Source of the DNA: Eledone cirrhosa
Lineage: Eukaryota
Assembly: GCA_964016885.1 (NCBI GenBank)
Contig: OZ024751.1
Span: 22,940,001-23,004,000 of the forward strand
Direction of reading: 5' to 3'
DNA length: 64,000 bases
The translations under genes were made by a program, and so were the position numbers. Shown piece after piece: positions 9,847-59,941 of this stretch. Position 1 is the stretch's first letter. Each line of letters starts with the position of its first letter. Under the pieces are notes generated by a model that saw only the letters and a list, made by a program, of their open reading frames with translations, did not search any database and was not told the DNA's origin.

Positions 9847-10040
9847 TAGGAACCAGTAAGACCCCGACAGCTGAGCTCAAGCCGTTTCGACGGAGTCCAG
9901 AATTAGCCGTCGAAACGGCTTGAGCTCAGCTGTCGGGGTCTTACTGGTTCCTATTACCCACTCTACTACCTCAAGTATTGAGTACTTTGGTGCGTTATGG
10001 TCCACCTGGTTCCTTACCACATTTCACATTTCCTTCGTTA
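9847..10040 (+). mobile_element. Fold-back Penelope-like terminal relic, family PalA, in (TA)n
   Basis: Inverted arms TAGGAACCAGTAAGACCCCGACAG...CGACGG / CCGTCG...CTGTCGGGGTCTTACTGGTTCCTA, then an ~85 nt unique tail ending CCTTCGTT; contains hammerhead 3' half GAAAC-stem III-GTC. Confidence 0.75.
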
Positions 10041-10394
10041 AATATATATATATATATATATATATATATATATATATATGTGTAAAAGATCAACAGAAAT
10101 ATATATATATAAGAGAGAGAGAGAGAGAGAGAGAGAGAGAGAGAGAGAGAGAGAGAGAGAGAGAGAGATTATTTATTCTTTATCATTAATATTAATATAA
10201 AAAATAATAATCATGTATACATTATTTTTATTTTTTTTACCTGAATTTTTATAGAGGAGGGCCTCAAATTTCATATAGCTATGGCCCTGGCCAGATGAAA
10301 GTCCGGCCCGGAGAGAATAGAACATTTAAATGTCTTACATCCAATATTTAAAGCAAGGTTTATCAAACTGTTTACTTAAGAGACATTTGTATCG

Positions 10395-10525
10395 ATCAAA
10401 TCGATCAACAAGATCCCAGACCTCATTTGCGTACTGCGTGGGGGTGGAACTCTTCTAATCAGACCAAGGAAACAATGTTTCCATGATCTTTCCATTGCTG
10501 ATACTATCTAACAGTCACAACTCCT
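10395..10525 (+). repeat. Unclassified dispersed repeat
   Basis: ATCAGACCAAGGAAACAATG...CCATTGCTGATACTATCTA also at ~50830-50950 (+) and decayed at ~52475-52540 (-). Confidence 0.7.
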
Positions 10526-11223
10526 GGTGGGATATAGCAGGATTTATTTCCTATTCACAAACAAATCAAGTGAATATAAAATTGCAAACAAGGTCGACGC
10601 ATCAGCTTTTATTCACCCCTGTCAGTCTATACAGATTACTTTGTGAAGCCTTGATTTAGACACTTCACCCTACGTACTAAATTGGTGTGCATATATATAT
10701 ATATATATATATATATATATATATATATATATATATATATATATATATATATATATATATATATATATACACACCGAACTGCATAAAACCTTTTGTATTT
10801 TCATTGGTCAATTTTGTTCCCAAACGGACCTGAAATTTTGAATTGTTGTTATTATCAATAAATATATTTCATTATTTATGTGTGTTTGGTATGTATATTT
10901 AATCTTGATAGTTTGTATAATTTTGTATAATTTTGTACATAGATCTGTTGAATATGCATGCCAATTCTAACACATATATATCCTAGAAACGATCGTTAAA
11001 TAATGAACTTTTTTTGTTTAATATAAGGAACTGTTTCATTGTTTTATTCATTATTTGTTTAATATTTTATCTTGACTCTGTATACCGTTTATCTTTCACC
11101 GAAAGTGATTTTTCATTACATCTCTTCTTTCCATGATATCCGGAATACATTGAGTTCTTCATACGGATTGGACACTACCGTAAACTCTTGGTAGATTTAT
11201 CTACATATATATATATATATATA

Positions 11224-11835
11224 TACTAGCCGAATTATTCGCGCCTTGCTGCGTTTCACATATTTTTTTTTTTTTTTTAAGAAAATGATGATTGATTTTG
11301 AATCAGTGATATAATTTATGGAGAAAAACTCTGCATTTCTATATTACTCAATGTAAAATGTAATGCATGAAAAGTTGGAAAACATTATTTATTTCAAATC
11401 CCGCCGAGGTTAACTTTGCCTTTCATCCTTACAGGGTCGATAAAATAAAGTACCAGTAATACACTGCCAAAAAGTAGAAAGAATTATTTATTGTAATATA
11501 TCAAATCAAACTTACATTATTAAATCTTATTCTTATTTTGTTTCTTGTAAATAATTTTTTTCAAAATATCAATTCAAAACTTTTGTGAATAGGCATCATA
11601 TCTTGTCATTTACCTATGGTTTAAATTTCATATAAATCGAAGGGAAAATATTTTCAGCGGAGGTTTGTACCCCCGTGGAACCCTTTCACTAAAATGGAAT
11701 ATAGTTATCCAAGTATCCTGGGCAATGTAGTTTCAGAATATATATTGTTACGGGGGGGGGGGGGGTGTCTATCTCCAAAAACATAGGACGAGTTCGTGAA
11801 CAAACAAACAAGCAGAAAGGAACTATAACTTTATA
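11224..11835 (-). mobile_element. Non-autonomous Helitron-like element with nested SINE A fragment (~11393-11487)
   Basis: Minus-strand 3' end ...CGCAGCAAGGCGCG-AATAATTCGG-CTAG(T) (small GC hairpin plus CTAG); (ACAA)n and CTTTATATA at the other end, as in Lep1/HINE-type elements. Confidence 0.5.
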
Positions 11836-14454
11836 TATATATATATATATATATATATATATATATATATATATATATATATATATATATATATATATAT
11901 ATATATAACATTAATAAAGATGCTGATGTTACAAAAATCGTTTATTCATTATAATTATTTCAACTGTTCTCCCATGCAATCAAGATGTAATTCATGCATT
12001 TGTTGTTGTTATGAGAACGACATCCTCAGATGAAAGTCGATATATATATATATATATATATATATATATAACTATAGATGCGATTAGCAGCCATATCGAG
12101 CAGCAACATATAATTTATCACTCCGGTCCTAGGCAGAACGAAAACCTGTTGATAAACTGAATCCTCCGTTCGATCACCAATACCATGAGCTTGCCATTCA
12201 CGTAAGTCTGATATTTGATTTCGGATTCAAAGAAACACTTTAAACGATTGTTCGTTTGATTTGTCCAGGTGTACTTTTCTCAACCTGATTAGTTCTATCG
12301 TTACTTTGGTATGTATTGTGTGTTAGTTTCGCTTACCACAATGTTCGATTTGTCAAGCTATTTAAACGGATGTTATTACTCTGAGGTCCTATCTTATCGA
12401 GTGCTTTGCTAACTCATCATTTCATATAAGTAGGCCGAATTTACTTGCAAATCGCCAGAGATTCGATTTTACTGATTTCCAATTATATATATATATATAT
12501 ATATACAAAAAGGAAATGGAAACAACAAAGTAAGCAATATCACAGTACAATGAAGAAATATATTAATAATAATAGCTTAAGAAAATTAAGTAAAATAGAC
12601 GTAGTGATAGAAATAATAGGGCAGCTGCCATTACGGAGAATCGAACTCAGTATTTCTAGATCTTCTCTAATGGCTGCTGGGTACCTTTTTCTGTCCTTAA
12701 GGTATATTACTCGGTTTTCTAAAAGCTATTATTTATAGCAATCGACTGTTGTTACAGTTATTTTCCGCATTTGGATTATCACATTTCGAATACCTAACCT
12801 ATCTAGCTAAATCTGTATATATATATATATATATATATATATATATATATATATATATATATATATAATCGTTATTACAAGCAGAATCCTCTGTACTCTA
12901 AGTTTCATGGTGCAGATTCTACAAACGATATGAATCGTTTGTATATCCGGTAGCGTAAAGTAAACTTAGTTAACAAACGCATCCGTGCATGCATATATAT
13001 ATATATGTGTGTGTTTGTGTGTGCGTATGTGTGTGTGTGTTTATGTGTGTGTATGTGCTTCTCCCTCTCTCTCTTTCTATACACACACACGCACACACAC
13101 ACACATAGGCAAGGAATGAAAAGTAATGTTGCGAGAGAACGAAGATTTAGTTCAAAGAACCTATTTTATAAATATATATAAATATGTATGTATATATATA
13201 TATATGTATATATATATGTATATATATATGTATATATATATATGTGTGTATATATATATATATATATATATATATATATATATATATATTTGTATATATA
13301 TATATGTATATATATATATGTATATATATATATATATATATATATATTTGTATATATATATATATATATATATATATATATATATATATATATATATATA
13401 TATATATTTGTATATATATATATATATTTGTATATATATATATATATATATATATATATATATATATATATATTCCCCTTTTAAGTTCTTTTTCGGTTGC
13501 AGGTAAAATTCTAGCTGGTAATAGTTATAAAACGTTAGATTGTATTGGCTATTGACTATAGACGATCGATCAATGTTTAACCTAGTTTCACCATCTACCT
13601 GTGAGCTACACTTCGATTTTTACCTGTATCTAATGAATTAGATTGGATATGATAATCAATATTACTAGTTTAGGTCAGGTATGCTACAGGTCATTGAGTG
13701 GGCGTCATGTCGTTAAGTAAGATGTGCTCATATATATTCATTATACATACATTATAGATATATATGTATGTGTATATGTATCTATACATGTATTTATCTA
13801 TGTATGTATTTATCTATTTATTTATGTATATATGTATACATGAATTTATGCATGTATGTATGTATCTATGTATGAATGTATGTATCTAAGTGTGAATGTA
13901 TGTATTTTTGTATGTATGCATGCATATATATTTCTGAATGCATGTATGTACGTATGTATGTGTATGTGAATGTATGTTTTTATGTGTATCTATGCATGTA
14001 TATTTATTAATGTATGTATGTGTGTACTACGTGTGAGTATGTATGTATATGTGTGTATGTATGCTGCAAAATCTGCTTCTCCTCATTAGCAAACAATCTC
14101 TCTAGCTCTCTCTCTCTGTCTCTCTCTCTCTTTGTCTCATATATATATATATATATGTATATATAAATATATACATATATATATACATCCCTCATATACA
14201 TACATACACACGCCCACACATACAGATACAAATAGACGCTCTTACACAGGTTAACAGAAGTAACTACACACGCTAACATACACAGTTAATCAGGTATAGG
14301 TAAACTCACACACCTACACATCTACATATGTGTACACACACACACACACACACACACACACACACACACACACACACTTACACAAAGAGTAACATTGACA
14401 TTTTCAATCACATCTTGCACAAGAACACCTATAAACTCTTTCACATTCTCTCAA

Positions 14455-58745: not shown

Positions 58746-58950
58746 AACTGTTGTACACCAAGCAGAAAAAGATGAAACGGGTTTAATAACCGAGCTTGAC
58801 ATGCGTTGATAGCTTGGCATAAACAACACGAGTTAATATGCCATGTATGTGTGTATGATCGTATGTATGAACTTATTTTATATATATATATATGTGTGTG
58901 TGTGTGTGTGTGTGTGTGTATTTATACATATATACATATACACATATATA

Positions 58951-59034
58951 TATTAGGTCGTCAAGTATGAAATGTGTAGACCTGTGTTTATTTTTCTACA
59001 AACTTCTACAAATTCCATACTTGACGACCCTATA
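58951..59034. mobile_element. Mini-MITE M2
   Basis: TATTAGGTCGTCAAGTATGAAAT / ATTCCATACTTGACGACCCTATA. Confidence 0.75.
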
Positions 59035-59706
59035 TATATTTATATATACGCGCAATATATATATATATATATATATATGCGCAATATATATATATATATA
59101 TATATATATATTGCGCATGTATATGTGTGTTTATGCATGTGATTGATCGCCTAATATCACGTACACCAAGTACTCCAGTATATAAATTCGCATAGAATGA
59201 AGAAGAAAAGATCTCCCACATTGAAAGGAAAGAGAACTTATGTTAGCGTTTGGTATTTTGGAGTGAATTTACTCACATTTATTTTCATTTATATTTCAAA
59301 GACTTTTCTACTAAGCTTCCATATTCCAAACATCTCGACAGCCGCCATATTAATCTAGCTTCACATTCTTACGTTTCATTGGCTGCTACGTGTGTGACGT
59401 AACTAGTACGATTTCTAGGGGTGGGGTGAAGTGGAGTAGGTTGGGGGGTTGTTTTTTAATTAATTGTATGATTCTTTCTTCTGGTTTTCAGTCTGTGTGA
59501 TGAAATATGTGACTGGCAAATAAAATGGAATGGACCGGACCTCCGTCGGTTTCGACGTTGAGTGTTCGAGTTTTTTCGATCAACGAAACAGTGTGCGTGG
59601 ATTGTTAGATGTTCCATTTGATGGCTGCCCCTATATATATATATATATATATATATATATATATATAGGGGCAGCCATATATATATATATATATATATAT
59701 ATTTAT

Positions 59707-59825
59707 ATATTGTTATACTTTGGGAGGGTCATCTTGCCAATAAGACCCTCCAAAAGTATAACAATATCGGTTTCAACACACGATTTCAGATAAAGAATCT
59801 TGCTAAACAAATTCAGAAACGAAAT
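59707..59825 (+). mobile_element. Short fold-back insert in (TA)n
   Basis: 24 bp arms 59707-59730 / 59744-59767 plus unique tail. Confidence 0.55.
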
Positions 59826-59941
59826 ATATTTATATATATATAGGAAAAGAGTCATGACCCGACGGCTGAGCTCCGGCCGTTTCGACAGCTAGATCCAAAC
59901 ATACATACACACACACATTATATGTATATATATATATGCCA

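Follow-up and report, generated by a model that had tools for sequence, protein, structure and literature searches.

Palindromic inserts with bounded centres and fixed ends in Eledone cirrhosa, likely derived from a Penelope-like element

Bounded centres and fixed ends of PalA

How can a palindrome be inserted time and again into TA repeats with the same outer ends and a different centre in each copy? This question is raised by PalA, a short repeat in 64,000 nt of the Eledone cirrhosa genome (assembly GCA_964016885.1, contig OZ024751.1, positions 22,940,001 to 23,004,000 of the forward strand; hereafter the window, whose own numbering is used throughout), which is AT-rich animal sequence abounding in microsatellites. 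Using the long arm of the palindrome as a BLAST query, we identified ten copies and one older relative (29590), including, at its given position, every copy listed in an earlier note made from the sequence alone. The inserts are real, abundant and shaped by a mechanism. We interpret them as head-to-head pairs of one short sequence, likely from a Penelope-like element (PLE), in which two complementary DNAs (cDNAs) would have run off the 5' end of an RNA at the motif AGTCC and then been joined; taken as a whole, we give this interpretation an even chance.

Counting from the A of AGTCC as +1 (9894, 35253 and 40819), six copies are two-armed, namely the five recognised previously, all of them confirmed, and a sixth, 22073, that had not been counted as such. 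Copy 9847 consists of a short arm (9847-9893, minus strand) that reaches +14 and ends at TTCCTA, and a long arm (9894-10039, plus strand) that runs from +1 (AGTCC) through the 3' half of a hammerhead ribozyme, with GUC at 9932-9934, into a tail with a 7-nt duplication near its end. Copy 23186 (23186-23378) joins a minus-strand short arm (23186-23230) to a plus-strand long arm (23231-23378) whose head is duplicated. The long arm of 33866 (33866-34053) lies on the minus strand and reaches +7, and its plus-strand short arm reaches +5; in 35197 (35197-35347) the short arm (35197-35252) reaches +5, and the long arm, with a shortened tail, starts at 35253 (+1); in 53763 (53763-53958) the short arm (53763-53819) reaches +4 and the long arm (53820-53958, tail 53880-53958) +2. 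In 22073 (22074-22218) the minus-strand short arm extends from +1 to a point 7-9 nt short of TTCCTA; a 12-nt filler follows, and the plus-strand long arm resumes just before TTCCTA and lacks the hammerhead half.

Across these six copies the further-reaching arm extends to +1, +1, +1, +2, +5 and +6, and the end of the other lies at +4 to +16, except in 22073, where it lies near +52. The centres of the five copies known before thus lie at +1 to +16, close to where they had been placed. All six joints differ, so that the possibility of one identical centre in all copies, which the earlier note had raised as a test, was not borne out. None of the joints continues into native upstream sequence, no arm of a two-armed copy extends 5' of AGTCC, and the native T upstream of it never appears. 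Likewise, the older relative (29602-29758) begins at AGTC, with a minus-strand long arm starting at 29711 and a plus-strand short arm from 29712. The arms span the GUC site uncut, and no inserted arm was found to be cut there.

The outer ends are equally constrained. All five previously known two-armed copies have a short arm that ends at TTCCTA (+60), as had been claimed, and the same end is seen in three one-armed copies: 40769 (40762-40878, plus strand), 42395 (42395-42447, minus strand), a short arm alone with TA on either side, and 59841 (59841-59891, minus strand), a short arm alone from a divergent subfamily. With the exception of 35197, the long arm ends at TTCGTT, 79 nt beyond TTCCTA (53879 to 53958; 23299 to 23378), rather than the approximately 85 nt given before; the 86 nt of 9847 is due to its 7-nt duplication. 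The location of PalA in (TA)n was also upheld: (TA)3 begins within 2 nt of the outer end in 17/18 cases, against 4268 of 113332 background positions (3.8%), and the ends show 1-3 nt of TA microhomology. Two further loci had been listed as full or partial copies. Upon closer inspection, 40769 is no plain partial copy, as it retains approximately 57 nt of native sequence upstream of +1, and 31651 (31651-31748, minus strand) is a PalA tail joined head-to-head to a different repeat (31746-31832), which recurs at 56411-56455 and itself ends in a TA run in the 31746 copy. The final 17 nt of the PalA tail occur a second time beyond a TA run at 53959-54013, possibly through slippage or re-priming at the insertion end. 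A tandem array of a unit of roughly 32-34 nt (59960-60290) adjoins copy 59841.

Public sequencing runs extend these observations beyond the window. A run search gave 12 runs, with no RNA dataset among them, four of which (X1, X10, X4 and X5) were aligned to 9880-10048 and gave 15494, 21746, 10 and 5 records, respectively. Among the loose ends listed for the 3' side, the best-supported lie behind 9954 (3444 X10 reads and 81 X1 contigs) and behind 10021/10025 (2423+2673, or 5096, X10 reads and 175+130, or 305, X1 contigs), in both cases leading into TA tracts. Since these are the same two positions as in the window, both 3' ends are family-wide. Loose ends listed before 9894 (107 X1 contigs and 837 X10 reads, with others from both X4 and X5) are similar to the 30 nt that precede +1 in 40769; in X10 their agreement is only 0.45-0.47, which indicates a mixture of sequences. 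Nine of the 11 opposite-strand joint rows have one side at 9894-9907 (five at 9894-9895, four at 9900-9907) and partners from 9932 to 9988, although those whose partner is 9948 may stem from breaks in the alignment at the variable stretch 9941-9947 or from bypass of hairpins in the polymerase chain reaction. The other two rows are the short arm of the reference itself and one tail-to-tail joint. Read depth at the junction of 9847 in X10 is 14 as against approximately 2,400 just inside it (arithmetic from a bin mean), and its centre is therefore not common to the family. We excluded 7159 X10 molecules that end at 9901, since a restriction site (AATT) probably accounts for them. These joint tables from four runs provide part of the breakpoint histogram that had been proposed as a check, short of a full genome-wide one, and in both window and runs the claim that the two kinds of junction are non-random holds, with bounded centres and fixed ends. 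An exact 24-nt PalA pattern had no match in metagenome and viral contigs.

Predicted hammerhead fold

Copy 40769 allowed the ribozyme to be examined in its upstream context. The last 30 nt before +1 are common to runs of three organisms (X1, X10, X4 and X5), for which reason we rejected a decayed short arm as their source; the letters further upstream, and hence the 5' part of the fold, rest on this one copy. The RNA of 40762-40878 was predicted to fold into a three-way junction (z about -2.1 to -2.2, a value equalled or bettered by 6-8 of 200 shuffles). Its stem I (40762-40773 paired with 40860-40877) has its base precisely where the short arm ends, the place of the core is taken by a 7-nt linker, UUCAUAA (40774-40780), a long stem II (40781-40836) carries +1 (40819) on its 3' strand just below the apex, and stem III has a palindromic loop. 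The linker equals the U3-A8 core variant except for G5C, the chance of a 7-mer this close being 0.015; this variant has been reported for Schistosoma PLEs (PMC4209133; here and below, published work is cited from the portions of its text available to us). GAAA, stem III and the NUH cleavage triplet are present as motifs in all full PalA arms. No palindromic PalA copy contains the 5' core that defines type I, either as CUGANGA or as the U3-A8 variant. Rfam recognised no hammerhead anywhere in the window at the gathering score, nor one in 40700-40900 at E<=10, so the hammerhead call rests on motif and fold. Taken together, the prediction for the full PalA unit is a type I hammerhead in which stem II contains +1 and the end of the short arm marks the base of stem I, in agreement with the earlier placement of the centre in stem II.

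Sister families

A masked self-comparison of the window revealed three further palindromes, each present as one two-armed copy, in which a hammerhead is accompanied by a tail on one side only and by a short arm that ends in a TA run. F2 (23428-23583) has the core variant CAGAAGA at 23498, its centre at the 5' strand of stem I and a tail of approximately 21 nt; the fragment 34276-34305 ends at its short-arm site. F3 (56529-56723) has a CTGATGA core at 56595, a centre again at the 5' strand of stem I and a tail of approximately 68 nt, and F4 (29145-29401) has a CTGATGA core at 29333, a centre roughly 20-35 nt 5' of the core and a tail of approximately 65 nt. The intact cores of F3 and F4 gave sub-threshold HH9 scores, and sub-threshold scores to microRNA families were also obtained. 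Given that all three centres lie 5' of the core, the centre is not tied to stem II, and stalling in stem II is not a general cause of it. The F2 core (23498-23504) carries U4A in both arms. Also, a 10-nt motif is common to the tails of F3 (56670-56683) and PalA, with a similar one in F4; the motif could serve to bind a protein between the two start sites.

Two cDNAs from one template

The two arms of a PalA copy closely resemble one another. Partners differ by 0, 1, 1, 1 and 3 letters over their common 45 nt; the mean difference between arms of different copies is 8.3 over 100 pairs, old and truncated arms included. For each of ten arms the nearest or tied-nearest arm is its own partner, and partners share private variants. 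This near-identity indicates that both arms of a copy derive from one molecule or one source locus, although later conversion between the arms may have contributed.

Two ways of copying one molecule into a palindrome were compared. Either two cDNAs were primed separately, as the earlier note had modelled, or a single tail-primed cDNA stopped near +1, folded back on a self-complementary patch and copied itself as far as TTCCTA, where the endonuclease or TA microhomology joined it to the target. Folding back accounts directly for the likeness of the arms, self-priming has been proposed for the head-to-head palindromes found at inverted PLE junctions (PMC3846280), and one X5 contig has a perfect centre on a self-complementary AATT. 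The unpaired central spacer is informative here. It lies on the long arm in four of six PalA copies (9847, 35197, 53763 and 23186) and in 29590, as folding back would have it, but on the short arm in another five palindromes, namely 22073, 33866 (by a margin of 2 nt) and F2, F3 and F4 (these three on the strength of predicted stem pairing only); in these five the short arm thus reaches further 5'. Further, 40769, 42395 and 59841 end at TTCCTA without a long arm, as expected if TTCCTA is a start site in its own right, and a fold-back would still require a separate cause for the limit at +1. This 5 versus 5 division of spacers, together with the one-armed short copies, moderately favours two separately primed cDNAs. 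We therefore regard two cDNAs as fairly probable and folding back as rather unlikely.

Origin of the +1 limit

In the mechanism that we propose, a Penelope-like protein with reverse transcriptase (RT) and GIY-YIG domains, acting in trans or encoded by an unseen master element, would nick both strands of a TA tract. Two cDNAs would be started at two fixed sites on the same RNA, which would be copied twice with strand displacement, and both would likely run off its 5' end at AGTCC. Their ends would then be trimmed and joined by microhomology at the centre. Position +1 would correspond to a transcription start inside the pseudo-long terminal repeat (pLTR), leaving the 5' ribozyme copy without its catalytic 5' half, and the downstream pLTR of longer transcripts would be the source of copies with upstream sequence, such as 40769. 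The sharp limit at +1 is of the kind that run-off from an RNA end produces; a hairpin would be expected to stop RT at its 3' base and not to spare the apex so cleanly.

That this RNA end is a transcription start we consider slightly better than an even chance. The consensus for initiators is YYANWYY. It fits +1 (chance 0.012 per site) and also the positions where the spacers of F2 and F3 begin; in three of four independent families the spacer opens with A[GT]T[CT] (chance 0.028 per site). All of these matches were noticed post hoc. In D. virilis, the Penelope transcript starts within the upstream pLTR (PMC2377424).

A number of observations weigh against this account as a whole. F4 has no initiator-like motif at its limit, the downstream promoter element RGWYV was not found at +28 to +32 of PalA, and TATA-like letters at -31 to -24 coincide with the 5' strand of stem II and so add nothing in favour of a promoter. 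A cap-derived G at -1 gave no support: G occupies -1 in three of three window arms that keep +1 (9847, 22073 and 35197), each of which the other arm or filler also explains, and only approximately 357 of 2,400 X10 reads reach the G at -1 of the reference (arithmetic from the alignment). In the green anole element the open reading frame (ORF) starts in stem II (PMC11167929), and its transcript therefore likely starts upstream of the ribozyme. Within the 64-kb window, no RT or endonuclease ORF lies in or beside any PalA copy. With regard to the public runs, X10 is a restriction-site-associated DNA library with a pile-up at the AATT site, joints upstream of +1 are unmappable on an aligned reference that has no native upstream letters, and symmetric hairpin joints do not appear in the joint table.

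More tentatively, and at somewhat less than even chances, the lineage may start transcription within its own hammerhead, thereby disarming the 5' copy, while a dimeric enzyme makes two cDNAs resembling "strong-stop" products, one per target strand. If so, PalA would record, in thousands of events, a one-step origin of the inverted pLTRs and tails of PLEs, and any long arm still carrying the start site might be amplified anew as a miniature non-autonomous element.

Two cDNAs could also have been limited at +1 because an endonuclease had nicked the pLTR itself in its AT-rich apex region, because an RNase had cut loop II or because of a splice acceptor at this position. ATT motifs in the pLTR region of the anole element are nicked by its own protein (PMC11167929), the native sequence leading up to +1 resembles an acceptor in being rich in pyrimidines and closing with TAG, an intron end in D. 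virilis maps to the 5' end of helix I (PMC4209133), and F4 has an acceptor-like motif immediately before stem I. An acceptor cut would nevertheless drop the AG, which is kept by four of four intact far-reaching arms in the window (9847, 22073, 35197 and 29590), and there is no direct sign of a nick; we consider such limits unlikely.

Stalling of both cDNAs in the stem II hairpin and joining there, the cause modelled in the earlier note, appears less likely still. It would suit the location of +1 high on the 3' strand of the long stem II that is predicted, and centres at +1 to +16, but RT arriving from the 3' side would meet the stem base first, near +18, and the stops form a sharp edge at +1, below the apex; moreover, the apex letters occur in no palindrome, the centres of F2, F3 and F4 lie outside stem II, and the fold is no better than its z-score of about -2.1 and its 6-8 equalling shuffles. 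Finally, a miniature inverted-repeat transposable element (MITE), copied as a palindromic unit by a DNA transposase targeting TA repeats, would share the form, copy number and TA flanks of PalA, but is highly improbable given six different centres in six copies with no single common interior, the shallow X10 depth at the junction of 9847, a one-sided tail by which the ends are not inverted repeats of each other, and the same ends in one-armed copies, and we do not class PalA as a MITE.

Relation to Penelope-like elements

PLE machinery very probably made PalA. An inverted, 5'-truncated head-to-head copy is found in six PalA copies, 29590, F2, F3 and F4; a one-sided tail with fixed ends measures 79 nt in PalA and approximately 21-68 nt in the sister families, versus 30-40 bp in the literature; the AT-rich or (TA)n insertion bias is that of the 17/18 outer ends above; and a putative pLTR hammerhead is represented by a 3' half in full PalA arms and by a full predicted fold in one copy, with a one-mismatch core and no Rfam match. 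PalA works like a PLE insertion, is likely derived from a PLE pLTR and is a candidate member of the class. A C-terminal GIY-YIG remnant (20536-20832, minus strand), unlinked to PalA, shows that Penelope-like elements have been active in this genome. Its peptide scores with GIY-YIG clusters (Atlas) and has 283 relatives at E<=0.001 (HMMER), and three long, C-terminally matching relatives carry RVT_1 followed by GIY-YIG (7 of 150 matches were domain-scanned); Pfam and word-index searches gave no match. The remnant is of Penelope-like type, with TA runs at its borders and approximately 70 nt of 3' sequence, and no hammerhead follows it.

The overall architecture, an inverted pLTR with tail, hammerhead and TA targets, is already known for PLEs, and each gross feature has been described before. 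Insertions of endonuclease-positive PLEs share with PalA the head-to-head truncated copy, the one-sided extension (a 30-40 bp tail), junction palindromes and microsatellite or (TA)n targets (PMC3846280; PMC8557442), and TATA- or initiator-like motifs have been noted in a PLE pLTR as in PalA (PMC3846280; PMC8557442). PalA differs in being a 60+139 nt end-piece without an ORF, with a 79-nt tail and centres bounded by one position. The Poseidon element PAc of the green anole, the one PLE studied in vitro, uses uncleaved RNA as template, and both strands of its target are cut and extended; its RT starts at two internal sites, which form the two ends of the tail without need of target homology (PMC11167929). 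Priming of the long arm at the RNA 3' end, as in the earlier model, is for PalA a conjecture. PalA is like PAc in its AT-rich targets and, as we interpret it, in two RT starts downstream of the hammerhead that bound the tail, extension of both strands and an uncleaved template. In contrast, the start sites of PalA lie 19 and 98 nt past GUC and its ends show the 1-3 nt TA microhomology, whereas the PAc ORF starts in stem II; the inverted junction is left unexplained in the available text (PMC11167929).

Minimal hammerheads of PLE pLTRs resemble PalA in type I topology, a long helix II, a palindromic loop III and the U3-A8 variant, and are mostly solitary, with opposite-strand pairs 100-700 bp apart (PMC4209133). 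PalA differs from them in a helix III of 4-5 bp, a stem II of approximately 55 nt, palindromic copies without the 5' core half, and G5C in its one full copy. Non-LTR retrozymes are likewise non-coding and hammerhead-bearing, with a proposed origin from PLE pLTRs (10.64898/2026.07.22.740005), but their units, each with a whole ribozyme, are arrayed in tandem head-to-tail; since PalA copies lie scattered and join head-to-head, we do not place PalA among them. No head-to-tail PalA tandem occurs in the window. The available text of an octopus repeat paper does not mention hammerheads.

Inversion by two primers is also familiar from non-PLE elements. In L1 twin priming, two primers from opposite target strands act on one RNA and give rise to an inversion, as proposed for PalA; the L1 pieces do not overlap and their internal site varies, whereas those of PalA share a stretch of 60 nt and start at two fixed sites.

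Among the titles and openings of abstracts searched, neither a fixed inversion limit nor paired run-off cDNAs were described for PLEs; the PalA family may already be catalogued in Repbase or Dfam. How the inverted ends of PLEs form is described as open in PMC8557442, PMC3846280 and PMC11167929. Because PalA is a very abundant minimal product in which both starts and the single stop are fixed while the joint varies, the two-cDNA and fold-back models can be separated by counting, and the start-site reading predicts a transcription start that can be checked with 5' RNA data. Furthermore, palindromes such as PalA could be mislabelled as MITEs or microRNA hairpins.

Other repeats in the window

A non-inverted hammerhead repeat, F5, was found in five pieces (9646-9785, 22972-23083, 27734-27900, 28136-28205 and 48701-48772), with a pyrimidine-rich upstream part and two 3' ends approximately 48 nt apart; two of its hammerhead copies lie on the same strand approximately 350 nt from each other. 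Also present is an abundant repeat resembling a short interspersed nuclear element, with many tandem and inverted copies (43713-44419, 22420-22560 and 24668-25252). Lastly, a 446-bp palindrome at 20870-21315, a single copy in the window, has 181-bp arms that are 98% alike, CTAG ends and a TA run on its left; it is MITE-like and differs from PalA.

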